Positions 8,012-31,258 of a DNA stretch of 31,258 nt are shown piece after piece. Each line of letters begins with the position of its first letter. Position 1 is the first letter of the stretch. The translations under genes and the position numbers were made by a program. The stretch is from IMG/VR virus record IMGVR_UViG_2718217862_000002. One strand, given 5' to 3'. Under the pieces are notes generated by a model. That model was not told the DNA's origin, searched no databases, and worked only from the letters and a program-made list of their open reading frames with translations. Source of the DNA: a virus. Its lineage: Duplodnaviria; Heunggongvirae; Uroviricota; Caudoviricetes.

Positions 8012-8521
8012 ATGATGCCAGTTAGCCGTAATCTCTGCATTTTCTTAAACGTTGGTTTGGGAGAAACGATAAATAAAGCCTCCGGAGCTATGCAGAAATC
8101 GGCTAATGGAGCTGATATTTCTGATGTATCAGCCTTCCGAAATGCGCTCCAGTTAGGGACCGCCGCAACACGAGATGTTGGAGCAGATAATGCCTCGAAG
8201 TTACTGGATTTAGACAGCTTCAGGTCAATGATGTCAGGGAATGGCTACATCTACATTCCATGCATTGCGACGACAGGAAACCCGGTGAAACTTATGTTGC
8301 AGTGGGGAACGGTGGCAACACAAAAGGGAGCTGATGCTGGATATGCCTTACCATTTGCTTTTCCCTATGCAGGCTTATTTGCGACCGGAAACCGTGGAAC
8401 ATCTGGCTACAATGCCGCGATGAATGTGCGTATTGCCAGCAGAACGCATATCAGTATTCAGAACTGGTCGCCATCCGGAGAGGGCACCGAAGATTGTTGT
8501 TTTATCGCGCTGGGGTATTAA
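8012..8521 (+). CDS. Alternate tail-fibre C-terminal (receptor-binding, Sv'-like) cassette lacking an N-terminal constant region; probably not expressed as a fibre in this orientation
   Basis: C-terminal part is homologous to the C-terminus of H on the opposite strand (shared GY.Y.P ... LQWG ... ALG[IY]-stop); followed by a tfa gene; begins at the hix-like site. Confidence 0.55.
   Translation: MMPVSRNLCIFLNVGLGETINKASGAMQKSANGADISDVSAFRNALQLGTAATRDVGADNASKLLDLDSFRSMMSGNGYIYIPCIATTGNPVKLMLQWGTVATQKGADAGYALPFAFPYAGLFATGNRGTSGYNAAMNVRIASRTHISIQNWSPSGEGTEDCCFIALGY
8042..8065. promoter_or_regulatory. hix/gix-like recombination-site remnant (TTCTTAAACGTTGGTTTGGGAGAA)
   Basis: Resembles the Hin/Gin crossover consensus (TTCTTGAAAACC..GGTTTTTGATAA-like half-sites) but with a shortened centre; sits exactly where the alternate fibre cassette begins, next to the invertase remnant. 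Confidence 0.35.
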
Positions 8522-8523
8522 GA

Positions 8524-8934
8524 ATGAATAAATTTTATAAAGGCTCTTTCTATCCGAAAGCACTAAAAGAGGTATATATCAGCGCCGGTTCATGGCCTGA
8601 AAATGGCGTTGATGTTGATGATGAAACAATGGCAATTTACACAGGCGTAGCGCCACAAGGCAAAACGCTGGGGGCTGATAAAAATGGTAATCCTGCGTGG
8701 ATTGATATCCCGCCACTCTCCGCTGAACAACAGATTATTCAGGCTGAACAGAAAAGAACGGTATTGCGTTCTATGGCTGATAAGGAAATAGTCTGGAGAC
8801 AGGATGCTTTTGATGCGGAAATCGCGACGGCAGAAGAAACCGCCGCGTTATCTGAATGGAAAAAATACCGGGTGCTGCTGATGCGCGTTGATACCTCAAA
8901 AGCCCCCGATATTCTGTGGCCTCCGCAACCGTAA
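8524..8934 (+). CDS. Tail-fibre assembly protein (Tfa / P2 gpG family), 136 aa
   Basis: C-terminus EWKKYRVLLMRVDTSKAPDILWPPQP matches the conserved Tfa C-terminal motif (lambda Tfa / P2 G type, WRQYRVLLNRVDTSTAPD.WP); ATG at 8524 three nt after the cassette stop. Confidence 0.7.
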   Translation: MNKFYKGSFYPKALKEVYISAGSWPENGVDVDDETMAIYTGVAPQGKTLGADKNGNPAWIDIPPLSAEQQIIQAEQKRTVLRSMADKEIVWRQDAFDAEIATAEETAALSEWKKYRVLLMRVDTSKAPDILWPPQP

Positions 8935-17979: not shown

Positions 17980-18834
17980 TCAGCAGTTCGTCATCAGGGC
18001 GTCACCGCCACCGCCGGTGGCCTTGCTGCGGCGCTGCTGGGTCAGACTTTCGGTGTTGTCGAGACTGTTTTTCAGGCGGCTGAATGCCTGACTGGTTTCA
18101 TCCGCCCTGTCAGTCACCTCCTGCTTAAGAGCGGAAAAGGCAGTTTCCATCTCAGCGAGGCGCTGCTCAGTGGCGCTCAGTTTTTCCTGCACATGTTCAG
18201 CGACAGCGGTCACCGCTTCATGCACGTCATTCAGACGGGCGTCATCGCTGGCCTGTTTGCGGCCAAAAATGGATTTCACCTTTTCGGTCAGAGCGGTGAA
18301 CACGGTTTCAGGCAGGTCTTCAAATTCCAGCTCAACGGGCGTTGCCACTGAAATCAGGTTTTCAGGGCTTAATTTGAAGCGGTTCAGGGGGTTGTGTTTT
18401 GCCGTGCGGCAGAATTCCAGGTATTCAGTACCGAGGCTTGCCGGGTCATCGGTGACGGCCAGCCCCACCAGATAACATTTGCCGGTGTTGGCAAAGTTCG
18501 GCTGAATTTCCATTGAGGTATAAACCTTCTGCGCGGCCTTGTTCATCGCGATAAGGTCATCGGTCGGGGTGATTTTCGCAAACAGCGCCCATTTGCCTTT
18601 CAGCGCCGAATCATCGTCAATCTTTTCGGCCTTCAGTTCGGCCACATCGCCATAACGCTTAAAAATACCGTCAGGCAGGATGCCGCGCAGATGTTCCAGG
18701 TTAATACGGCAACCATAGACACGCGGGTCAAAGGTTTCGGCCATTTCCTGAATATCCTGCGCACTGATGACACGCCCGTCACAGGTGTCACCCTCAACGC
18801 CGATACGAAAGAATTTTGAGACTTTTTTTGCCAT
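17980..18834 (-). CDS. O: Capsid scaffolding protein gpO, 284 aa
   Basis: Start at MAKKVSKFFRIG (ATG at 18834, AGGA upstream); size matches P2 gpO; divergent from P. Confidence 0.85.
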   Translation of the reverse strand: MAKKVSKFFRIGVEGDTCDGRVISAQDIQEMAETFDPRVYGCRINLEHLRGILPDGIFKRYGDVAELKAEKIDDDSALKGKWALFAKITPTDDLIAMNKAAQKVYTSMEIQPNFANTGKCYLVGLAVTDDPASLGTEYLEFCRTAKHNPLNRFKLSPENLISVATPVELEFEDLPETVFTALTEKVKSIFGRKQASDDARLNDVHEAVTAVAEHVQEKLSATEQRLAEMETAFSALKQEVTDRADETSQAFSRLKNSLDNTESLTQQRRSKATGGGGDALMTNC

Positions 18835-19007
18835 TGTCAGGAGTCCTGAATAGTGATTAGAGGAGTCACATGTCGGCATCAGTTTCCCGACGATGCGCAT
18901 CCTCCGCCATCAGTCCCGGATGGCTTATCACTGACACAACAGCACCTTAGCGAATCGCAGGGCGCGACTCAGTAGCCTTGCCGTGTATTCATCACGGCGA
19001 GGTATTC

Positions 19008-20780
19008 ATGACCATCACCACAGACACCACTCTTTTACACGACCCGCGTCGTCAGGCGGCGCTGCTGTACTGGCAGGGGTTTTCCGTGCCGCAGATTGCC
19101 GCCATGTTGCAGATGAAACGCCCGACGGTGCAGAGCTGGAAACAGCGCGACGGCTGGGACAGCGTTGCTCCCATCAGCCGTGTCGAAATGAGTCTGGAAG
19201 CGCGGCTGACCCAGCTCATCATCAAACCGCAGAAAACCGGCGGTGACTTCAAGGAAATTGATCTGCTGGGACGCCAGATTGAACGACTGGCACGGGTAAA
19301 CCGCTACAACCAGACCGGCAACGAGGCAGACCTTAATCCGAACATCGCTAACCGCAACAAAGGCGGGCGACGCAAACCGAAAAAGAATTTTTTCAGCGAC
19401 GAGGCTATCGAAAAGCTGGAGCAGATTTTCTTTGAGCAGTCTTTCGAATATCAGTTGCACTGGTATCGCGCCGGGCTTGAGCACCGCATCCGCGATATCC
19501 TGAAATCCCGCCAGATTGGCGCGACGTTTTATTTTTCCCGCGAGGCGCTGCTGCGCGCCCTGAAAACCGGTCATAACCAGATTTTTCTGTCGGCCAGTAA
19601 AACGCAGGCGTATGTGTTCCGCGAATACATCATCGCCTTTGCCCGTCTGGTTGACGTTGACCTGACCGGTGACCCGATTGTCCTGGGCAATAACGGCGCA
19701 AAACTGATTTTTCTCGGCACCAACTCCAACACCGCACAGAGCCATAACGGCGACCTGTACGTCGACGAGATTTTCTGGATCCCGAATTTTCAGGTACTGC
19801 GTAAGGTGGCATCAGGTATGGCCTCACAGAGTCACCTGCGTTCGACCTATTTCTCCACCCCGTCCACGCTGGCGCACGACGCCTACCCGTTCTGGTCAGG
19901 TGAACTGTTCAACCGGGGACGCGCCAGCGCCGCCGAACGCGTGGAAATCGACGTCAGTCATAACGCCCTTGCCGGTGGGCTTCTCTGTGCGGACGGCCAG
20001 TGGCGGCAGATTGTCACCATTGAGGACGCCCTGAAAGGTGGCTGCACGCTGTTCGACATTGAGCAGCTCAAACGTGAAAACAGCGCCGACGATTTTAAAA
20101 ACCTGTTCATGTGTGAATTTGTTGACGACAAGGCGCCGGTGTTCCCGTTCGAGGAGCTGCAACGCTGCATGGTCGACACGCTGGAAGAATGGGAAGACTA
20201 TGCGCCGTTTGCCGCGAATCCGTTCGGCTCCCGCCCGGTATGGATTGGTTACGACCCGTCACACCGTGGCGACAGCGCCGGATGCGTGGTGCTGGCACCG
20301 CCGGTGGTGGCCGGTGGCAAATTCAGAATACTTGAGCGTCACCAGTGGAAAGGCATGGACTTTGCCACTCAGGCGGAATCCATCCGCAAACTCACCGAAA
20401 AATACAACGTCGAATACATCGGTATTGATGCCACCGGCCTCGGTGTCGGCGTGTTCCAGCTCGTGCGCTCGTTCTATCCCGCCGCGCGCGATATCCGCTA
20501 CACGCCGGAAATGAAAACCGCAATGGTGCTCAAGGCAAAAGACGTTATCCGTCGTGGCTGTCTGGAATATGACGTCAGCGCCACCGACATCACCAGCTCG
20601 TTTATGGCTATCCGCAAGACCATGACCAGCAGCGGACGCAGCGCCACCTATGAGGCCAGCCGCAGCGAGGAAGCCAGCCACGCCGACCTCGCCTGGGCGA
20701 CCATGCACGCCCTGTTAAATGAGCCACTCACCGCCGGTATCAGCACTCCGCTGACATCCACCATTCTGGAGTTTTACTGA
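19008..20780 (+). CDS. P: Terminase large (ATPase) subunit gpP, 590 aa
   Basis: Start at MTITTDTTLLHDPRRQAALLYWQGFSVPQIA (ATG 19008, GAGG six nt upstream); size matches P2 gpP. Confidence 0.9.
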   Translation: MTITTDTTLLHDPRRQAALLYWQGFSVPQIAAMLQMKRPTVQSWKQRDGWDSVAPISRVEMSLEARLTQLIIKPQKTGGDFKEIDLLGRQIERLARVNRYNQTGNEADLNPNIANRNKGGRRKPKKNFFSDEAIEKLEQIFFEQSFEYQLHWYRAGLEHRIRDILKSRQIGATFYFSREALLRALKTGHNQIFLSASKTQAYVFREYIIAFARLVDVDLTGDPIVLGNNGAKLIFLGTNSNTAQSHNGDLYVDEIFWIPNFQVLRKVASGMASQSHLRSTYFSTPSTLAHDAYPFWSGELFNRGRASAAERVEIDVSHNALAGGLLCADGQWRQIVTIEDALKGGCTLFDIEQLKRENSADDFKNLFMCEFVDDKAPVFPFEELQRCMVDTLEEWEDYAPFAANPFGSRPVWIGYDPSHRGDSAGCVVLAPPVVAGGKFRILERHQWKGMDFATQAESIRKLTEKYNVEYIGIDATGLGVGVFQLVRSFYPAARDIRYTPEMKTAMVLKAKDVIRRGCLEYDVSATDITSSFMAIRKTMTSSGRSATYEASRSEEASHADLAWATMHALLNEPLTAGISTPLTSTILEFY

Positions 20781-21814
20781 TGAGCAAGAAAAAAGGGAAA
20801 ACACCGCGACCAGCGGCAAAAAAAATGACCGCCAGCGCTCCGAAAATGGAGGCATTCACCTTTGGCGAGCCGGTGCCGGTACTCGACCGCCGTGACATTC
20901 TGGATTATGTCGAGTGCATCAGTAACGGCAGATGGTATGAGCCACCGGTCAGCTTTACCGGTCTGGCAAAAAGCCTGCGTGCTGCCGTGCATCACAGCTC
21001 CCCGATTTACGTCAAACGCAATATTCTGGCCTCGACATTTATCCCGCATCCGTGGCTTTCCCAGCAGGATTTCAGCCGCTTTGTGCTGGATTTTCTGGTG
21101 TTCGGTAATGCGTTTCTGGAAAAGCGTTACAGCACTACCGGTAAGGTCATCAGACTGGAAACCTCACCGGCAAAATATACCCGCCGTGGCGTGGAAGAGG
21201 ATGTTTACTGGTGGGTGCCGTCCTTCAACGAGCCGACAGCCTTCGCGCCCGGCTCCGTGTTTCACCTGCTGGAGCCGGATATTAATCAGGAGCTGTACGG
21301 CCTGCCGGAATATCTCAGCGCCCTTAACTCTGCCTGGCTGAATGAGTCGGCCACGTTGTTCCGCCGCAAGTATTACGAAAATGGCGCACATGCCGGATAC
21401 ATCATGTACGTCACCGATGCCGTGCAGGATCGCAACGATATCGAAATGCTTCGCGAAAACATGGTCAAGTCGAAAGGCCGCAACAACTTTAAAAACCTGT
21501 TTCTCTATGCCCCACAGGGGAAAGCCGACGGCATTAAAATTATCCCCCTCAGTGAAGTGGCGACGAAGGACGATTTTTTTAATATCAAAAAAGCCAGCGC
21601 CGCTGACCTGCTGGACGCGCACCGCATCCCCTTTCAGTTGATGGGTGGCAAGCCGGAGAACGTCGGGTCGCTGGGTGATATTGAGAAAGTGGCAAAGGTC
21701 TTTGTCCGCAATGAGCTTATCCCGTTACAGGACAGGATCCGCGAGATAAACGGCTGGCTCGGTCAGGAGGTCATCCGCTTTAAAAACTACTCACTGGACA
21801 CTGACAACGACTGA
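20780..21814 (+). CDS. Q: Portal protein gpQ, 344 aa
   Basis: Size identical to P2 gpQ; start overlaps the P stop; last gene before cos. Confidence 0.9.
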   Translation: MSKKKGKTPRPAAKKMTASAPKMEAFTFGEPVPVLDRRDILDYVECISNGRWYEPPVSFTGLAKSLRAAVHHSSPIYVKRNILASTFIPHPWLSQQDFSRFVLDFLVFGNAFLEKRYSTTGKVIRLETSPAKYTRRGVEEDVYWWVPSFNEPTAFAPGSVFHLLEPDINQELYGLPEYLSALNSAWLNESATLFRRKYYENGAHAGYIMYVTDAVQDRNDIEMLRENMVKSKGRNNFKNLFLYAPQGKADGIKIIPLSEVATKDDFFNIKKASAADLLDAHRIPFQLMGGKPENVGSLGDIEKVAKVFVRNELIPLQDRIREINGWLGQEVIRFKNYSLDTDND

Positions 21815-21841: not shown

Positions 21842-21984
21842 ACACCCCGTCATCCCCCCCCCTCACACGCTCACCACCGCACAAAACACCCCGCAGACAC
21901 ACAACGCCTCAACGGGCAGACTAAGTGCCGTCACGACGCGCTGAGACGCTGAAAAAATACAATCAGCACCACCGTCAGCGCGCA

Positions 21985-22003
21985 GTGCTTTCCCCGCCTC
22001 GCC
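21985..22003. other. P2-type cos cohesive-end sequence (reverse complement of GGCGAGGCGGGGAAAGCAC)
   Basis: Plus strand reads GTGCTTTCCCCGCCTCGCC at 21985..22003, which is the exact reverse complement of the 19-nt P2 cohesive end as I recall it; located just beyond Q as in P2. Confidence 0.6.
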
Positions 22004-22229
22004 CGCCCGCTTCATGGGGCGGTTTTAATGCAGTTGCATGAGTACGTTGGAACCGCACTGGTGCTGACGATACCCAATCAAACCTTGCTGTATAATTACT
22101 TGCGAATTCACGCACATCAACGCGAATCTTACATCATGAATAATTCATTTATGGCTACAGAATGAGTATATTGCATGTTATGAAATAACTTTGTGCTCCT
22201 TCTCGTGGACATGTTCAACGGAGATCCAG

Positions 22230-23351
22230 ATGATTGCTGATTCAGAAATACTTTATGTTCCGCTAGATGATTTGGAACTTGACACAGAAAACCCAAGACT
22301 TCCTGAAGGCGTGTCTCGTGACCAATTGGGAATGATTAACTACATAGCAACCTCAACATCTATCGAAGACCTAATGAGTGCTATTGCGGAAAATGGTTTT
22401 TTCCCTGGAGAACCATTGATTGTCATTCCTGATAGTGGAGCGCCGGGGAAGTACATTGTAGTTGAAGGAAACCGTCGCCTATCCGCGGTCAAATTATTAC
22501 GCGATCCGACACTATGTGAAAATCCAAGTGCTCGACTACGAGAAATTGCATCAAATGCAAAACATACGGTCGATCGTGTTCCTGTCATTGAGCGCCAAAC
22601 AAGAGAAGAGATTCTTCCGTACCTTGGTTTCAGACATATTACTGGTGTCAAACAATGGGAACCCTTATCAAAAGCTCGATATATTAAACAGCTTTTTGAT
22701 TATACCAATGCAAATCTGGATCCAATGCTACGCTACTATGAGGTTGCCAGAGCTATTGGCAGTCGTAGGGATCATATCAAGCGTAACCTAGACGCTTTAG
22801 CGGTGTATGAAATCATTAAAAAAAATGATTTTTATGGTATTGAAAAGCTAGATGAAGAAACGATTAAATTTTCAGTATTATCAACAGCACTTGCTGATGA
22901 GCGGTTAGGCCAGTTTGTCGGAGTTTCAATCGAAGACGATGGAGACACAATACCAAGTCATCCTATCATCAATTCTAAGAGTTTAAAGAACAAAGAAATA
23001 AAAGAACTAACTGAATGGTTATATAAAAAAGGCGAGGATAAAAAAACTCGTGTAGGAGAATCACGTAATTTAAGAGAACTAGCTGCTGTTGTAAGTAGCC
23101 CTAAGGCATTGGAGCAATTCCGAATGGGGGCTCCACTCGCAGTTGCCTATCAATTGACATCTGATATTACTAAGGACTTTCTCCAGTTACTTTATCAAGT
23201 TGAAGCAGCTTTGATAGATGCAGCAGGCATGGTTGCCACGGTAGAGTATGATAGACAGGCCCATGAAGTAGCACGAAGAATCAATAAACATATTAAGCTT
23301 ATAGGTTCTGAAATAGCAGAGAAAAATAGCAGAGGTGATGATGACTTTTGA
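22230..23351 (+). CDS. ParB/Srx-like (ParB N-terminal nuclease/NTPase-fold) domain protein, about 373 aa; cargo gene 1
   Basis: N-terminal region ILYVPLDDLELDTENPRL ... LMSAIAENGFFPGEPLIVIP ... KYIVVEGNRRLSAVKLL follows the ParB-box pattern (NPR motif, then the G-x-R-R arginine motif). ATG at 22230 preceded by GGAG; the ORF-track start at 22191 is a TTG. AT-rich codon usage unlike the phage backbone. Confidence 0.7.
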   Translation: MIADSEILYVPLDDLELDTENPRLPEGVSRDQLGMINYIATSTSIEDLMSAIAENGFFPGEPLIVIPDSGAPGKYIVVEGNRRLSAVKLLRDPTLCENPSARLREIASNAKHTVDRVPVIERQTREEILPYLGFRHITGVKQWEPLSKARYIKQLFDYTNANLDPMLRYYEVARAIGSRRDHIKRNLDALAVYEIIKKNDFYGIEKLDEETIKFSVLSTALADERLGQFVGVSIEDDGDTIPSHPIINSKSLKNKEIKELTEWLYKKGEDKKTRVGESRNLRELAAVVSSPKALEQFRMGAPLAVAYQLTSDITKDFLQLLYQVEAALIDAAGMVATVEYDRQAHEVARRINKHIKLIGSEIAEKNSRGDDDF

Positions 23352-24330
23352 AGTAGGAGTTATGCATCCCAACTCTCCTCATTTGTTTGCAGATTTAGCC
23401 GAGTTACTCACGGTAATTAATTATACCGGACGTAACTCACTACATAAAAATGATTTAGATTCAGTAAGAAAATTCGGCATAACAAGCGTTGAAGAAATTG
23501 ATGAAGAATGTAATTCTGAAGAAGAAATTAATGGAGACGCTGAGAGAAATGATCGTTTTGAAGAGCAACTCGAAGATGTTTGGACACAACTCGAATATAG
23601 AGAAAGTGCTCTTGGCAAAATATATCCATTTATAATTTCAGGTGATGAGATAATTATTAAAGAAAATCTAAACCAACAACAACGAATATATGTTTTTCTT
23701 CTTTGCTGCTCTAGACTTAGATCCTTTAAGTCGATTAAAGGAGCAGCACAACGTTGGGCAAAGAGCTTTGCCAGAGTATGTAAAGTAGCAATGATTTCTC
23801 TCTTACCTGCACATGGCACCGTAAGAATTTTTGATGCTAACTCCGATGATAGGCAAAATTATTATGGAACAAATCTTCGGACAGCTCTACAAACTTTAGG
23901 AAAAGATCTTGGAGTTTGTAGTTTAAACACAAGGGAAATAAATAGAGCTCCCACATCTGGTGATGCCGGGTTTGACCTAATTGCTACAGTGGAATTTCCT
24001 GATGGTCAAACTAGCAACTATGGAATTCTTGGTCAATGTGGTGCACAAGAAACAGGGTGGCCAAGCAAAACATTAGAGGCTAACGTGTTAAAACTGACCA
24101 CCTATTTCCAAATTGCGTTCCAGCATCCATCAACAATGTTCACGCCTGTTTTCTATCGGGAAGCAAATGGCGAATGGGTAAGCACACACGCAACCGCTGG
24201 AGTATTATTATTAGATAGGTTGAGAATCATATATCTACTTGATAAGGCAAACCAATGGGAAGCGATAACTACCTCTGATTGGTTTCGCGAATTTGAGGAA
24301 GAGCTTTATACATTAAATCCAGAGCCTTAA
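23335..24330 (+). CDS. Hypothetical protein, 331 aa, no domain recognised; overlaps gene 1 by 17 nt; cargo gene 2
   Basis: Long ORF in the AT-rich island, start codons (ATGATGATG) overlapping the 3' end of gene 1; acidic stretch EEIDEECNSEEEINGDAERNDRFEEQLED near the N-terminus. Confidence 0.6.
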   Translation: MMMTFEVGVMHPNSPHLFADLAELLTVINYTGRNSLHKNDLDSVRKFGITSVEEIDEECNSEEEINGDAERNDRFEEQLEDVWTQLEYRESALGKIYPFIISGDEIIIKENLNQQQRIYVFLLCCSRLRSFKSIKGAAQRWAKSFARVCKVAMISLLPAHGTVRIFDANSDDRQNYYGTNLRTALQTLGKDLGVCSLNTREINRAPTSGDAGFDLIATVEFPDGQTSNYGILGQCGAQETGWPSKTLEANVLKLTTYFQIAFQHPSTMFTPVFYREANGEWVSTHATAGVLLLDRLRIIYLLDKANQWEAITTSDWFREFEEELYTLNPEP

Positions 24331-24337
24331 TAGCTTA

Positions 24338-25282
24338 TCAATCCCATAATTCTATTGGCAATGCCTTCGTTACAGCTTCAAAAAGCGGCGGAGGCACTGC
24401 ATTACCAACCACCGTGTATTTCATGCCAAGACTTGCAGCATTTGTTTCTGGAAACACTAGATCCTCAAACCCTTGTAATAGTGCAGCCTCTCGAAAACTG
24501 AATCTGCGAGCTCTCCGATCCTCAACAAATCTCCATTCATCAGTTCTTACTTTCTCCATCGGAGGACTGACAGGATGCAACGGCATATGCCTTGCATTAG
24601 CAACTATTGTCTTTGAAATTTGATCCCAATCCTGGCGACGATTGCGAGACATATAATACCAATGGAATCCCATATCATAAAATTCACCTTCTGGCCATTC
24701 AGGTAAATGCCCTATAGCATCTTTAATAGTAACATAGTTGACGCCAGTTGCTGGCCCATGAGTTGGCTGAGGGAACTCGTACTTAACTTTGAAATCATTA
24801 CGGATTCCTACGATAAATATTCTTTTTCTTTCCTGCGCTACTCCATATTCAGCCGCATTTAAAACTTTTGCGGAAACAGTATAACCTGCTTCAGTAAAAA
24901 CCCTGATCTGGTCAGATAACAAATGCTCAAAATTTTTTCTAACCATACCAGACACGTTTTCTACTATAAAAGCTTTAGGCTTTATATTGTTTAAAGCTCT
25001 AGCAAACTCTAAATAAAGAGTATTAATTTTTCGATCGGCTTTACGCGCACCACCCTGGCTGAATCCCTGACATGGATAACAACCTACCAGCAAATCAGAT
25101 TTAGGAAAAGTAGTTACATCAGCAATATTGCCTAATATGTAATCAGTTTCTGGATGATTGGCAATATAAACATCGCGCGCATACGGCAAGATATCGTTGG
25201 CCATAAGCACATCAAAGCCGGCTCTCAAAACCCCCGCATCGGAACCACCGCATCCAGAAAAAAGTGAAACTACTGTTGGCAT
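24338..25282 (-). CDS. DNA (cytosine-5)-methyltransferase, 314 aa; cargo gene 3
   Basis: Canonical m5C MTase motifs in order: FSGCGG (motif I, AdoMet binding), PCQGFS (motif IV, catalytic Cys), ENV (motif VI), QERKR (motif VIII). Convergent with gene 2, stops 8 bp apart. Confidence 0.9.
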   Translation of the reverse strand: MPTVVSLFSGCGGSDAGVLRAGFDVLMANDILPYARDVYIANHPETDYILGNIADVTTFPKSDLLVGCYPCQGFSQGGARKADRKINTLYLEFARALNNIKPKAFIVENVSGMVRKNFEHLLSDQIRVFTEAGYTVSAKVLNAAEYGVAQERKRIFIVGIRNDFKVKYEFPQPTHGPATGVNYVTIKDAIGHLPEWPEGEFYDMGFHWYYMSRNRRQDWDQISKTIVANARHMPLHPVSPPMEKVRTDEWRFVEDRRARRFSFREAALLQGFEDLVFPETNAASLGMKYTVVGNAVPPPLFEAVTKALPIELWD

Positions 25283-25401
25283 TATCCCCTCCTAAAACCG
25301 ACCGCGTATTATAGCGAAAGCCTCCGTATATAGAAGCAGGTTTTGAACAAGATTATGTTCTCACTTTTTAACAACTGTGGCCATAAAAAATTAGCTCAAT
25401 A

Positions 25402-25430
25402 TGAAAAACAGATTAATTCATTGTTTTTCA
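25402..25430. repeat. Perfect 9-bp inverted repeat TGAAAAACA-N11-TGTTTTTCA in the AT-rich spacer between the MTase start and the A stop
   Basis: Read directly from sequence at 25402-25410 and 25422-25430. Confidence 0.5.
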
Positions 25431-25483
25431 TAGAAAAATTCCACAAACACTATAACATTCCCACAACACTGCAGTAGTAGTCA

Positions 25484-27760
25484 TTATTGTTTAATTGAAA
25501 AAACCGACCACTCATTAGCGACCGGATACGTGAATTTTTTCCCGTCATAATTTACGGTTGCCCCACGCGCCAGCGCCTCAAGCTCCCATCGCTGCGGCCT
25601 GATACCGTTCTGAGCAAGGTCAACGCGGATACGGGTAATTTGCATTCGTTCCGACCGGGTCAGTCTGGCCGATGGTGCCATTTCATGCGGTTTTAACGGG
25701 CTTCCGTTTCTTTGCTGGCGATTTGGTGTTCTCAGGCCATGTTTTAATGCACCTCTGAGCGCCCTCACGACCTCCGGGTCATTCCATTCGATGACACCGT
25801 CATCAACCAGATTAAGCACTGCTGCGGCGTGCTCAGAAGGTGTGGGAGCTGGTAACGAAGTATCACCACCGGTGAGCTTTCCACAGTTATTGACAGGACT
25901 CCGAGGCGCGGCGATGCCGCTTTTTAAAGTCAAAGGCTCAACGACCGGAACTTTCGGCACAATGCGCCAGTCCGTCGTTCTGGTGATATGAATATGACGC
26001 GCGCCGAGATGCGGCGCGTAAATGCCGACCACTCTCTCGACTTCTTCCTCGTATTCGTTAACGTCATCCGACGGGCTACGGGCGACCCTGACAGTCTGAC
26101 AATCGCGCGGGACATTTGCCCCGCCCTGCGCGCTGATATACAACGCAAAATCGCCACTGTCTGCGGCGGCGCGTGCAGCCTCCACGCGTTCGTCAAATTC
26201 ATCAGCAATGCTGACGCCGCGAGGCAATTTACGTAGCTCACGGTAAGCTCCCATTGTCGGCAGGCCAACCGTTTTAAATTGCGGGATGCGCCACGTTGAC
26301 GCCCATGCGGTAACAGCCGCCGCAGTATCTTTCAGCGGTCTGCCGGTATCGTTATCGAGCTGACCATCCAGTGCATAGCCGTCGATATTTTTTGAAATGT
26401 ATTTCGCGATATATCCCGCAGCACCGCCCCGGTTAAGGTGTTTTGCCTGAAAACGGTTTCGCGCGGCTCCTCTTTCGTCGCCATCCTCTTTGAGCGCATA
26501 GCGGCGCATGATTTCGATAATCTGGTTACGCTGGCGTGGATTACAAAAAAGCATCATATGCCAGTGCGGCGTTCCGTCGTGGTGTGGCTCGACGACTCGC
26601 AAACCGTAGACCTGTAAATCATTATCCTTGAATGCCGTGCGCATCAGGCTCCAGATACGGCAGAGATAACGCTGCGCATCCTTTGGATTAAATGCCTCAT
26701 CATTCCAGCCGTGATTAAGCTGGACGGTTTTATTTTCGCCTTTTCCAACCTGACGTGTCGGGTGATACTTTGACGGCGCGGTCAGCGTGATAAACATCCC
26801 CACATCACCCTCTGAGGCGGCGTAACGCTCAATACCGGCAATGGTGTTCATCAGCTCCATCCGGCGAATTTCAGGATTAGAAATACTGCCCATCACCTTA
26901 CTGATAAGGTCGATGCGCTCGCCGGTTTCCCTGTTTTCAAGATCACACGATTTAAGAAATTCCAGATTTGCCTGGCGGCGCGCACGCACATCACGAATGG
27001 CATGTTTACTGGCATAAGGTGAACGGTCTTTATTGACCTCCCCGACAGCTATCAGTAACGCCTCATGCCAGCGCATACGCTGGCCTTTAAGCTGATGAGT
27101 CCACCACTCATCGTTAAACAGACGGGCAATGGCAGAATATGCCTGCCTCGTGGTCATCTGCCCTTTACGGTATTTGTTCCAGTAGAGAGGGGAAATATTG
27201 AAAGCACGTGCAGCGCCAGCAACATGACCATAGAGGTGAGCCTGCGCCTCATCCGTAAACAGCGATTCTTTTTCGCCATGTGCATCCACCCAGGCATCGC
27301 TGAGTTCCTCATACATCATGAAAAGCTGCGATGAGATACGGGCAGCAAACTTTTTCAGCTCCTTGTCATTCATTCCCGGCAGGCGCGCATAGTGGTCACG
27401 CTCTGCCAGAAACAGTAACGACGCGTCGGTGTTCATTTCATGGCGCTGATTCACACGCTCAATGCGCGGCCATAAACGACGCTGAAAAGTGGATGTGAGG
27501 AAATAAAACCCGTGCACCGGGCTTTTATTGCGCCGGATGTAGTCATAGCGTGAAGTAAACAGCGAGCGCAAAAAGTAAGGCAGGCGGTTAATCGTGGATA
27601 AAACACCTTGCACCTGACGCATCTCGTCACGTGTAAGAGGTCTTTCGCGCCCGACAGCCTCGCGTGGCGCGTTCCATGCATAAGCACCGGTAAACGCCTT
27701 ACCGGTGCCTGCGGCAAATGCTGACGGAGGGACAAAACGCCCGGAGGCTTTAACGGCCAT
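25484..27760 (-). CDS. A: Replication initiation protein gpA (rolling-circle endonuclease), about 758 aa
   Basis: Size and position match P2 gpA; first ATG at 27760 (MAVKASGRF...); the ORF-track start at 27802 is a TTG that would overlap orf83 by about 50 nt. Confidence 0.85.
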   Translation of the reverse strand: MAVKASGRFVPPSAFAAGTGKAFTGAYAWNAPREAVGRERPLTRDEMRQVQGVLSTINRLPYFLRSLFTSRYDYIRRNKSPVHGFYFLTSTFQRRLWPRIERVNQRHEMNTDASLLFLAERDHYARLPGMNDKELKKFAARISSQLFMMYEELSDAWVDAHGEKESLFTDEAQAHLYGHVAGAARAFNISPLYWNKYRKGQMTTRQAYSAIARLFNDEWWTHQLKGQRMRWHEALLIAVGEVNKDRSPYASKHAIRDVRARRQANLEFLKSCDLENRETGERIDLISKVMGSISNPEIRRMELMNTIAGIERYAASEGDVGMFITLTAPSKYHPTRQVGKGENKTVQLNHGWNDEAFNPKDAQRYLCRIWSLMRTAFKDNDLQVYGLRVVEPHHDGTPHWHMMLFCNPRQRNQIIEIMRRYALKEDGDERGAARNRFQAKHLNRGGAAGYIAKYISKNIDGYALDGQLDNDTGRPLKDTAAAVTAWASTWRIPQFKTVGLPTMGAYRELRKLPRGVSIADEFDERVEAARAAADSGDFALYISAQGGANVPRDCQTVRVARSPSDDVNEYEEEVERVVGIYAPHLGARHIHITRTTDWRIVPKVPVVEPLTLKSGIAAPRSPVNNCGKLTGGDTSLPAPTPSEHAAAVLNLVDDGVIEWNDPEVVRALRGALKHGLRTPNRQQRNGSPLKPHEMAPSARLTRSERMQITRIRVDLAQNGIRPQRWELEALARGATVNYDGKKFTYPVANEWSVFSIKQ

Positions 27761-28025
27761 ATGAGCCAAAAGCCTCAGAACAACGCTTGCTGAGTTGCTC
27801 AACCTGCGCGTTTAAATCAGCAAAAGACTTTGCGCTTCCGGTCAGAATATCGTGATGCATCAGGCCGGAAACGAGCTGGCTTAATTTCGGGTAATAACCA
27901 ACCACCGCCAGCCATTCCTGACCGGCGTTTTTACCGCTTTCCGCTCTCTTTTTCTCGTGGAGAATAAACTGAAAGCTGTCACTGGTAACGACATAACGTT
28001 CGCCAATTTCAATACGAATACTCAT
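27750..28025 (-). CDS. Hypothetical protein (P2 orf83 position), 91 aa
   Basis: Synteny within the early operon between orf82 and A; start overlaps the orf82 stop. Confidence 0.55.
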   Translation of the reverse strand: MSIRIEIGERYVVTSDSFQFILHEKKRAESGKNAGQEWLAVVGYYPKLSQLVSGLMHHDILTGSAKSFADLNAQVEQLSKRCSEAFGSYGR

Positions 28026-29505: not shown

Positions 29506-29778
29506 TCACAACCCCATCCACAAAAGCCATGCATCACGCTGTTCAACCGGTCGGTTATAAAACGCCTCACGTACAGCGCGATTAAACTCAGGAATGAAAA
29601 CCCATTTTTCACCGGCACGAGCCTTCGGTTTGCAAGGATCACGCAATTCAATAATTGGTAATTTATTTGCCTTCACCATTTCACTGACAGCTGTCTTTGG
29701 CTTCCCTAATAAATCAGCAAATTTATCCACATGAACCGCATCAAGCGGATACTGAATCACATAATTTTCAGCGTCCAT
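29506..29778 (-). CDS. cox: Cox (excisionase / early transcription regulator), about 90 aa
   Basis: C-terminal ...PVEQRDAWLLWMGL resembles the P2 Cox C-terminus; first gene of the early operon, divergent from C. Confidence 0.8.
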   Translation of the reverse strand: MDAENYVIQYPLDAVHVDKFADLLGKPKTAVSEMVKANKLPIIELRDPCKPKARAGEKWVFIPEFNRAVREAFYNRPVEQRDAWLLWMGL

Positions 29779-29855
29779 ATATGGTACCCTCATAGGATCC
29801 AGCCCTTTCTAAACCACTCAAAACCGTTTAGACGCTGGTTTATTCTCAAATCAAT

Positions 29856-29903
29856 GGAACCTATATAGGTTCCAGTTTTGAGGGAATTTAGTCCCTATAT
29901 AGG
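29856..29903. promoter_or_regulatory. Immunity-switch operator/promoter region: perfect 18-bp palindrome GGAACCTATATAGGTTCC (29856-29873) and second CCTATATAGG copy (29894-29903)
   Basis: Two copies of CCTATATAGG, 34 bp centre-to-centre, in the 136-bp cox-C intergenic region where Pe/Pc and repressor operators lie in P2-like phages; each contains a TATA-rich -10-like hexamer. Confidence 0.45.
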
Positions 29904-29914
29904 CACCATGTCAA

Positions 29915-30208
29915 ATGAAATTAAGCGAAAAGATTAAGGCCTTGCGTGAGGCGGAAGGGCTAAGCCAATCAAAATTCTGTGAAATCATAGAGTTACCGCT
30001 AAGCACACTTAAAAAATATGAAGGAGGAAACTTTGAACCCGGTGGCACAGCTTTGCTAAAAATCACTATGCATCCCACATTCCAAAAATATGCTCTATGG
30101 CTTATGACAGATAAAACCGCGCCGGACGCAGGACAAATCGCACCGGCTCTCGCGCACATTGGGCCAGAGTCAACAGAGTCCAACCACTCCGCGAAAAGGA
30201 TTGGCTAA
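29915..30208 (+). CDS. C: Immunity repressor C (HTH), 97 aa
   Basis: N-terminal helix-turn-helix region (LSQSKFCEIIELPLSTLKKYE) and C-terminal GQIAPALAHIG resembling P2 C (GQIAPALAHFG); located directly upstream of int. Confidence 0.85.
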   Translation: MKLSEKIKALREAEGLSQSKFCEIIELPLSTLKKYEGGNFEPGGTALLKITMHPTFQKYALWLMTDKTAPDAGQIAPALAHIGPESTESNHSAKRIG

Positions 30209-30277
30209 CTCTATATAAAGATTACATTTTCACCATTTGCTACCAAGATGGTGAATACAGCGCCGGAGGGCTTTCTT

Positions 30278-31258
30278 ATGGCAATTAAGAAGCTCGATGA
30301 TGGTCGCTATGAAGTGGACATTAGACCTCGCGGTCGCGACGGAAAACGCATCCGCAGGAAATTCGAAAGAAAAGCTGAAGCACTAGCATTTGAGCGATAC
30401 ACAATCGCCAATGCCAGTCAGAAAGAATGGGGAGGCCAGCGAGCAGACCGCCGGACTTTGAGTGAGTTGCTGGACATCTGGTGGAAATATCACGGGCAAA
30501 ACCACGAGCATGGAACAAAAGAGTTTAATCATCTACTCAAAACCATCAGCGGCATAGGTGATATACCAGTGAGCAGGATGAGCAAAAGGGCTTTGATGGA
30601 TTATCGTTCCATGCGACTACGTGATGGTATCAGTGCCGCAACGATAAACCGTGACATGTACCGATTATCCGGCATGTTCACAAAATTAATTCAATTGGAT
30701 GAATTTTCCGGGCAACACCCAATTCACGGACTGCCGCCACTGGCGGAGGCCAACCCTGAAATGACGTTCCTGGAAAAAGCAGAAATCGAAAAACTGTTAA
30801 ATGTTTTGGCTGGTGATGACTTACTTGTCGCGCTTTTATGTCTGAGCACTGGAGGAAGATGGACGGAAGTTGCCACGCTAAAACCAGCACAGATTACAAA
30901 TTGCAGGGTTACCTTCCTGAAAACCAAAAACGGTAAAAAGCGAACCGTGCCGATTTCTGAGGAACTGGAGAAAAAAGTTAAAGAGGAGGCCAGCGCCAAA
31001 TTATTCAAAGTTGATTATGAGAAATTTTGCGGGATTTTACGCAGAGTGAAACCTGATATACCACCCAATCAGGCAACCCACATCCTGCGGCATACATTCG
31101 CAAGCCATTTCATGATGAATGGGGGCAATATAATCGCACTGCAACAGATTCTGGGACATGCAAGCATTCAGCAGACGATGGCCTATGCGCACCTTGCGCC
31201 TGACTATCTGCAAAATGCCGTCGCTCTGAATCCACTAAAAGGCGGAGTGACGTTATAA
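30278..31258 (+). CDS. int: Tyrosine integrase, 326 aa
   Basis: MAIKKLDDGRYEVDIRPRGRDGKRIRRKF... recognised as P2 Int-like; C-terminal catalytic region (HILRHTFASHFMMNGGNIIALQQILGHASIQQTMAYAHL) carries the tyrosine-recombinase R/H-x-x-R/Y signature; GGAGGG RBS seven nt upstream of ATG 30278; stop codon is the last triplet of the window. Confidence 0.9.
   Translation: MAIKKLDDGRYEVDIRPRGRDGKRIRRKFERKAEALAFERYTIANASQKEWGGQRADRRTLSELLDIWWKYHGQNHEHGTKEFNHLLKTISGIGDIPVSRMSKRALMDYRSMRLRDGISAATINRDMYRLSGMFTKLIQLDEFSGQHPIHGLPPLAEANPEMTFLEKAEIEKLLNVLAGDDLLVALLCLSTGGRWTEVATLKPAQITNCRVTFLKTKNGKKRTVPISEELEKKVKEEASAKLFKVDYEKFCGILRRVKPDIPPNQATHILRHTFASHFMMNGGNIIALQQILGHASIQQTMAYAHLAPDYLQNAVALNPLKGGVTL

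Follow-up and report, generated by a model that had tools for sequence, protein, structure and literature searches.

The window analysed here, a stretch of 31,258 nucleotides (nt) from a virus of the Caudoviricetes (IMG/VR record IMGVR_UViG_2718217862_000002), is an almost complete P2-like prophage that carries a cargo island of three genes, encoding a ParB/KorB-like protein (gene 1), a protein without assigned function whose frame overlaps the end of gene 1 (gene 2), and a C5 cytosine DNA methyltransferase. Gene 2 is a real, conserved gene, and as judged from sequence profiles and a structural model its product is most likely a DNA-cutting enzyme with an Mrr/MspJI-like fold. Its most probable role is that of nuclease subunit in a restriction-like module that is ParB-assisted, widespread and unannotated, and the ParB-like gene accompanies it at every evaluable locus of the dataset. 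With moderate confidence, gene 2 can be viewed as the DNA-cleaving effector of a three-gene, restriction-modification (RM)-like anti-phage module that travels as hotspot cargo of the prophage. In such a system, the HaeIII-like C5 methyltransferase would mark host and prophage DNA, and gene 1, with its intact nucleoside triphosphate (NTP)-binding motif, its helix-turn-helix (HTH) domain and its acidic tail, would engage incoming unmarked DNA, probably in a nucleotide-dependent manner, and would recruit or license gene 2, which would then cut the DNA. An overlap of 11-17 nt between the two genes would couple their translation, both proteins being made together as expected for a complex. We infer, from these comparisons, the nuclease activity of gene 2, its complex with gene 1, the NTP dependence, the sensitivity to methylation and the anti-phage activity.

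Gene 2 as a predicted Mrr/MspJI-like nuclease

Structure prediction and a fold search, which a sequence-only reading of the same DNA had proposed for gene 2, gave the restriction enzyme MspJI as the top match. The AlphaFold2 model, built on 41 sequences, is confident (predicted local distance difference test, pLDDT, 89.5; predicted template modelling score, pTM, 0.90) and is predicted to contain a restriction-endonuclease-like alpha/beta core. The best three Foldseek matches among 350,542 PDB chains were all MspJI chains (best E 0.03, probability 0.91) and, apart from MspJI, no match to these chains fell below E 2. A divergent profile of 43 family members, searched against 177,635 PDB sequences, also placed MspJI on top (E 0.06) and aligned GDgGlDlVa...vvfgQCac of the family with SGDGGVDFIG...VVVLGQAKC, the catalytic D...QxK region of MspJI; only this divergent profile reached MspJI, as searches of the PDB with the single protein and with a profile of close homologues returned only spurious coiled-coil or acidic matches. 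Two divergent members weakly match Pfam Mrr_cat and Mrr_cat_2 (E 0.005 and 0.023, one of the 43 members per model), and the window protein matches neither of these two models. Three independent routes converge on one enzyme, and although each is weak alone, their agreement is not.

The sequence-only reading had found no motif that it could assign in gene 2, but the alignment reveals a nuclease motif, GDxGxD...GQC, whose two blocks are given in Table 1. Within it, D212 is predicted to be the catalytic metal-binding aspartate. Across 299 aligned members, D212 and Q232 never vary, nor do R87, Y117, R293 and R295, and D208 is kept in 297. The canonical lysine site, position 234, is occupied by Gly in 155 members, Ala in 126, Thr in 8 and Lys in 7, and K243, nine residues downstream in a WPxK motif, is found in 293. 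The two lysines tend to replace each other, with four of the seven K234 members lacking K243 and 290 of the 292 members without K234 possessing it (Fisher p=1.6e-6). This reciprocal pattern is expected of a relocated catalytic lysine, which argues that the site is functional rather than decayed, and K243 is predicted, from covariation and not from inspection of the structure, to be the relocated residue. The predicted restriction-endonuclease-like fold and the invariant putative catalytic residues agree with the earlier suggestion that the effector is the partner without an assignable function.

The same positions bear on the alternative that gene 2 is a catalytically dead restriction-endonuclease fold that serves DNA binding or specificity only, with cleavage performed by the ParB-like domain of gene 1 or by a host nuclease. 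The canonical QxK lysine is missing in 292 of the 299 members, Pfam holds an inactive restriction endonuclease family (NA-iREase1) related to Mrr_cat, and some ParB/Srx-fold proteins are reported to nick DNA, according to work cited in PMC12839542. However, inactive derivatives usually lose residues such as D212 and Q232, which are invariant here, and K243, which is nearly so, and the reciprocal lysine pattern fits a conserved active site with a relocated lysine; a dead fold is regarded as quite improbable.

Beyond the predicted catalytic half, the invariant residues of the N-terminal half (Table 1) may make up a surface that contacts gene 1 or one that binds DNA. The acidic low-complexity stretch that the sequence-only reading had placed near the N-terminus is acidic (residues ~50-82, 15 D/E in 30) but is modelled as two helices (pLDDT ~81-84), not as disorder, and is the most indel-prone part of the family. 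The family itself is large, comprising 273 homologues at 49-100% identity, all named hypothetical, and 1239 clusters at 50% identity, almost all of whose representatives are 300-365 amino acids (aa) long. Its members occur in Proteobacteria and also in Acidobacteriota, Chloroflexota, Bacteroidota, Actinomycetota-like metagenome-assembled genomes (MAGs) and Campylobacterota, and in PHROGs the protein matches only families 3984 and 14650, both of unknown function.

Reading frame of gene 2 and its overlap with gene 1

The open reading frame (ORF) claimed for gene 2 is present on the plus strand, has about 300 homologues of full length and overlaps the end of gene 1. The start sequence that had been quoted for it, ATGATGATG, is actually GTGATGATGAC, the start region reading GTG ATG ATG ACT TTT GAA, while gene 1 ends ...GAT GAT GAC TTT TGA, with its stop TGA at 23349-23351. 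The reported overlap of 17 nt applies to the GTG at 23335 only, and becomes 14 nt for the ATG at 23338, annotated in public records (329 aa), and 11 nt for the ATG at 23341. Homologues favour this second ATG, which aligns with the N-terminus 'MxFxIG' of most of them and begins 5 nt after an AGAGG Shine-Dalgarno-like motif at 23331-23335. Among related loci that share at least 38% identity, the two genes repeatedly overlap by 8-17 nt, most often by 11 nt in the form ATGAnTTTTRA, and the overlap is therefore not a chance feature. When gene 2 was compared with two relatives at ~78% nucleotide identity, nonsynonymous divergence (dN) was 0.083 against a proportion of synonymous differences (pS) of 0.74; low dN in the face of saturated synonymous change indicates clear purifying selection on the frame, which is conserved in related islands.

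Genomic association of the three genes

Co-occurrence was assessed in two sets of loci, one searched from gene 2 with one genome per species (45 genomic loci) and one searched from gene 1 in viral contigs (80 viral loci). Gene 1 lies directly upstream of gene 2 in 42 of 42 evaluable genomic loci, the other three being cut by contig ends, and in all 79 evaluable viral loci gene 1 is followed immediately by gene 2. No homologue of gene 2 was found without gene 1 at an evaluable locus. The two genes also co-diverge (Spearman 0.87-0.89). Together, the two-way adjacency, the recurring start/stop overlap and the co-divergence support the co-transcription and coupling of the pair that had been anticipated from the sequence.

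A C5 methyltransferase is adjacent in 77 of the 80 viral loci, with the remaining three cut by contig ends, and lies at most 3.5 kb away in 29 of the 45 genomic loci. Its order relative to gene 2 is convergent in 80 of 98 loci, and its positions and orientations vary across phyla. The link to a neighbouring methyltransferase assumed by the sequence-only reading is thus upheld in most loci, where the real unit is one of three genes, but it is not absolute, as six complete chromosomal loci have no such gene nearby. The enzyme of the window has M.HaeIII as its closest solved structure (E 1.4e-48), in an alignment that runs over the full length and includes the variable target-recognition region; a GGCC-like target is therefore a reasonable guess, though only a guess. 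Its divergence is loosely correlated with that of genes 1 and 2 (0.32-0.42), and it retains ~70% identity where gene 1 is at ~34% and gene 2 at ~27%. In a sublineage (e.g. loci L026, L027, L029, L082, L089 and L128), a second, more distant type of C5 methylase (43-47% identity), encoded downstream on the same strand, replaces the usual one. In a Thiovulum MAG (L045, 5176-9739), the pair stands in a defence island, with GmrSD encoded on its upstream side and a HARE-HTH/Mrr_cat protein on its downstream side, and in a Helicobacter cetorum MAG (L030, 1976-6877), an ORF of 1633 aa for a HerA/FtsK-like protein overlaps the start of gene 1.

The ParB/KorB-like partner and its relationship to PD-lambda-5

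The ParB N-terminal fold with a Box II GxxR phosphate-binding motif is present in gene 1, which shows a Box I-like NPRLP and a Box II-like EGNRR, the latter invariant and aligned to GERRLRA. The nucleotide preference of the ParB fold is not predictable from sequence (PMC12704722). No short palindromes of the kind used as ParB binding sites were found between positions 21850 and 25500, and gene 1 stands outside a partition context, its neighbours being the phage portal/cos side and gene 2, although no search aimed at ParA was made. A HEPN assignment suggested by RRINKH, which resembled Rx4H, was rejected, as this string lacks a conserved His and lies in a hairpin of two helices. The tail of gene 1 (window 23319-23351) is disordered and acidic and ends in an aromatic residue (...RGDDDF). 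It is kept across the family, including loci where the genes do not overlap (L002 ...DEDGF, L004 ...DEDSF, L007 ...DEDVF), and the overlap alone is therefore insufficient to explain it. The tail resembles the C-terminal tip of the single-stranded DNA-binding protein SSB (DDDIPF), and a possible role for it is that of a docking peptide, with gene 2 or a host protein as its partner.

The closest described relative is PD-lambda-5, listed as 'ParB/HEPN, methyltransferase' in the supplement of the original study and described as a compacted prophage 'RM+Abi' system, which was validated experimentally and comes from a P2-like prophage of E. coli ECOR7 (PMC9519451). Like PD-lambda-5, the window has compact prophage cargo that combines a ParB-like protein with a DNA methyltransferase, and gene 1 corresponds to the N-terminal ParB-like part of PD-lambda-5_A, with LDxxNPRLP and VVEGNRR in common. 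Against the PADLOC PD-Lambda-5_A models, gene 1 reaches E 6.6e-29 at best, with its own N-terminal two thirds only, the matches ending at about profile position 277 of 440, and it is homologous (hhalign 98.7%) to the first ~200 residues of Marinobacter phage AS1_27, itself a full-length PD-Lambda-5_A match. In contrast to PD-lambda-5, gene 1 lacks the HEPN half, and the effector is a separate protein with a predicted restriction-endonuclease fold; gene 2 was ruled out as the missing half of PD-lambda-5_A, given an hhalign probability of 0.15% against its C-terminal half. The methyltransferases also differ, that of the window being a HaeIII-like C5 enzyme whereas PD-Lambda-5_B is a Dam-like N6-adenine enzyme. 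Genuine members, such as those of Marinobacter phage AS1 and Vibrio phage ValB1MD-2, combine a protein of ~480 aa with a Dam-like enzyme, annotated as an adenine methylase, whose match to PD-Lambda-5_B has an E of 1e-103 to 1e-118; this model is not among the 25 best PADLOC matches of the window methyltransferase. In ValB1MD-2 (L129, 3132-5571), PD-lambda-5_A is split into two ORFs, gp42 covering profile positions 4-238 and gp41 positions 250-502, followed by the PD-Lambda-5_B methylase; this split is either a natural separation of sensor and HEPN effector or a frameshift. The locus of the window is not PD-lambda-5 but a sibling of it, which follows the same logic with an effector of another kind, encoded by a gene of its own.

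A more specific and tentative version of the restriction proposal is that a nucleotide-gated DNA clamp of ParB/KorB type, not a helicase or an AAA+ motor, reads the methylation state and delivers or activates the Mrr-like nuclease via the acidic tail, which would define a distinct class of NTP-dependent restriction. The kinship with PD-lambda-5 also suggests abortive infection, in which gene 1 would sense foreign or unmethylated DNA and gene 2 would be released as an indiscriminate DNase that degrades the DNA of host and phage together, so that the infected cell dies and the invader is not selectively restricted. In PD-lambda-5_A, the sensor half with which gene 1 shares homology is fused to an effector, a HEPN RNase; the effector seems to be a modular element, HEPN being fused in one system and a putative nuclease separate in the other; and gene pairs exist without a nearby methyltransferase. 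Yet direct restriction is just as compatible with the tight methyltransferase linkage and with a gene order that is convergent, as in type II systems; the sequence gives no way to tell selective from indiscriminate cleavage, and abortive infection is held to be somewhat doubtful, a little more so than the clamp.

Comparison with other restriction systems

When structures and profiles are compared, the C-terminal half of gene 2 is matched best by the type IV enzymes of the MspJI, AspBHI and Mrr family, with which it shares GDGGxD...GQx(K), a hydrophobic strand after this motif and then a D/G-x-x-L helix. Unlike these enzymes, gene 2 has no SRA-like or Mrr_N domain and its catalytic lysine is predicted to be relocated; moreover, they are single-chain enzymes, whereas gene 2 has an obligatory ParB-like partner and is linked to a methyltransferase. 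Gene 2 might nonetheless cut foreign modified DNA as they do, with gene 1 as an NTP-dependent regulator comparable to DUF262 in GmrSD and with the methyltransferase serving a separate purpose, e.g. anti-restriction. The closest structural and sequence relatives (MspJI, AspBHI and Mrr_cat) are modification-dependent, six loci have no methyltransferase nearby, and a winged-helix-like N-terminal part followed by an Mrr-like catalytic domain resembles the domain order of Mrr. Against this stands the methyltransferase itself, whose adjacency in nearly all viral loci, at varied positions and orientations across phyla, argues for functional coupling; moreover, unless the two differed in specificity, a resident 5-methylcytosine (m5C) methylase would be self-toxic beside a nuclease that depends on m5C. 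A type IV-like activity is accordingly judged unlikely.

Among systems in which a ParB-superfamily nucleotide-binding module works with a DNA nuclease in phage defence, GmrSD, BrxU and SspE (PMC12065111) have DUF262 fused to HNH, whereas the module described here has a classical ParB_N/KorB protein with HTH, a predicted PD-(D/E)xK nuclease on a separate polypeptide, and a methyltransferase. A Pfam scan of genes 1 and 2 found no DUF262 (GmrSD_N) and no DUF1524/HNH (GmrSD_C), and a genuine GmrSD gene in L045 was easily detected. LlaJI and BsuMI combine m5C methyltransferases with an McrB-like NTPase and an McrC-like nuclease, cognate C5 methylation protecting self, and restriction by them needs an NTP-binding subunit and a separate PD-(D/E)xK nuclease subunit, which is the same logic as that proposed for the present module. 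Their NTP-binding subunit is an AAA+ GTPase and not a ParB fold, and they are not known to have any sequence relationship to the module. Classical type II RM systems such as HaeIII share the adjacent, convergent arrangement of a methyltransferase and a putative endonuclease, and the methyltransferase is close to M.HaeIII over its full length. Unlike them, the present module always carries the additional ParB-like subunit, and gene 2 matches no restriction endonuclease model in PADLOC or Pfam.

Several observations weigh against gene 2 being the nuclease of an RM-like module. No family model in Pfam, NCBIfam or PADLOC matches gene 2 significantly, and hhalign of the family against E. coli Mrr and a low-diversity Mrr alignment gave probabilities of only 8-12% (11.6% against the Mrr alignment), the match covering only the C-terminal segment (LLxDRxRIxxL / VLVDGERLxxLM) and being suggestive rather than evidence. 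The canonical catalytic lysine is absent, its replacement by K243 being read from covariation only. The nearest structural relatives, MspJI and Mrr, depend on modification, which is the opposite polarity to that proposed. Finally, loci L002, L010, L014, L017, L034 and L045, all with complete flanks, have the pair with intact motifs and no DNA methyltransferase within ~3.5 kb, whereas a strict restriction enzyme would need its methylase. The neighbours at these six loci are housekeeping genes (NadA, HisF, GuaA, citrate synthase and PrmC) or other defence genes (GmrSD, Mrr, type I S subunit), and the methylase may lie elsewhere in the genome or the pair may be independent of it.

The prophage setting and the cargo island

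The cargo island (Table 1) has a guanine-plus-cytosine (GC) content of 35-43%, as compared with 52-60% in the flanking phage backbone genes, and is a variable defence hotspot of the P2-like prophage, whose integrase lies at the right edge of the window. A rich hotspot of defence genes has been described at this position, beside the P2 portal (Vassallo et al. 2022, PMC9519451). Forty-eight complete E. coli genomes carry the island DNA at 100% identity, the triad being annotated there as 'ParB N-terminal domain-containing protein | hypothetical protein | DNA cytosine methyltransferase'. In reference P2, this position is occupied by old/tin. Matching DNA is present at the right end of Yersinia phage HQ103 (NC_070908.1), ~230 bp from the cos end, and phage Wphi has a distant version of the triad (gp98, gp96 and mth) at the corresponding position. 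In the RefSeq record of HQ103, genes 1 and 2 are hypothetical and the methyltransferase has no coding sequence, although the 314-aa ORF is intact there (L047, 2335-3279, minus strand), which represents an annotation gap. In the P2-like Yersinia phage L-413C (NC_004745.1), gene 2 is not detectable and gene 1 is represented only by a truncated homologue at 29617-30504 (residues 9-303, 62% identity), apparently the remnant of a decayed module.

This location raises the alternative that the genes are not for defence, the ParB-like protein and its partner instead handling phage DNA (partition, packaging or regulation near cos) beside an ordinary phage methylase, as the genuine ParB/KorB fold of gene 1 and the short distance to the cos end of the phage genome would allow. 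It is very improbable, and the least probable of the explanations considered. The GC content of the island is foreign, the island takes the place of other cargo at a recognised defence hotspot, most P2-like phages lack it, the pair also occurs in bacterial chromosomes outside prophages, beside GmrSD, Mrr or type I RM genes, and the partner has a predicted restriction-endonuclease fold.

A candidate promoter for the operon of genes 1 and 2 was read from the sequence (Table 1). In a promoter consensus scan, sites were no more numerous than in shuffled sequence; the scan requires a -35 element and hence did not pick up this extended -10 candidate. Elsewhere in the window, two ORFs at 8012-8934 (plus strand) run antisense to the surrounding tail genes. 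One encodes a Gp53-like tail-fibre C-terminal domain and the other a tail-fibre assembly protein, and together they have the appearance of a tail-fibre cassette that is alternative or inverted, comparable to invertible host-range segments.

Table 1. Positions of the cargo island, its genes and motifs, and flanking phage genes in the window.
Feature	Position	Strand	Description
Scaffold, terminase and portal ORFs	17980-21814		
Low-GC cargo island	about 22000..25483		Between portal/cos side and gene A; three genes: gene 1, gene 2 and methyltransferase
Candidate extended -10 promoter	22087..22096	+	TGtATAAT; ~135 nt upstream of gene 1 ATG
Gene 1	22230..23351	+	373 aa; ParB/KorB-like NTP-binding fold, KorB/SopB-like HTH DNA-binding domain, C-terminal helical hairpin, acidic tail
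Gene 2 ORF	23335-24330	+	331 aa from GTG; 328-331 aa depending on start
Gene 1/gene 2 overlap	23341..23351	+	11 nt from ATG 23341
Gene 2, N-terminal half			Helical, winged-helix-like; invariant D18, E21, R87, YPF95-97, Y117
Gene 2, C-terminal half			Predicted Mrr/MspJI-like PD-(D/E)xK nuclease domain
Motif G207-D208-A-G210-F-D212	23959..23976	+	Aligns to MspJI SGDGGVD
Motif G231-Q232-C233-G234...W240-P-x-K243	24031..24069	+	Q232 aligns with Q of MspJI GQAK
C5 cytosine DNA methyltransferase	24338..25282	-	314 aa; convergent with gene 2, stop codons 7 nt apart; Pfam DNA_methylase E 5.5e-65
Replication gene A (gpA)	25484-27802		

Biological significance

In the literature on PD-lambda-5, ParB with restriction or CTPase activity, Wphi orf96, PDC-M38 and P2 hotspots, no description of the triad was found. 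As gene 2 has no Pfam, NCBIfam or PADLOC model and is of unknown function in PHROGs, current defence-finding tools miss the whole module; all that they would list is a partial match to PD-lambda-5_A and a methyltransferase classed as 'orphan'. The gene 2 family would also be a case of catalytic-lysine relocation in an Mrr/MspJI-like nuclease, as predicted from covariation. The role of the ParB fold outside chromosome segregation is a question raised by a 2025 survey (PMC12704722). If the proposed mechanism is true, a nuclease-armed branch would be added to the only validated defence that combines ParB with a methyltransferase, and E. coli and P2 would offer an experimentally tractable example of a ParB-fold nucleotide switch outside chromosome segregation. 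If the clamp version is true as well, the module would be a DNase-armed sibling of PD-lambda-5 within a modular family made of a ParB-like sensor, a methyltransferase and an interchangeable effector, and the ParB switch would act as the self/non-self sensor of a restriction system.

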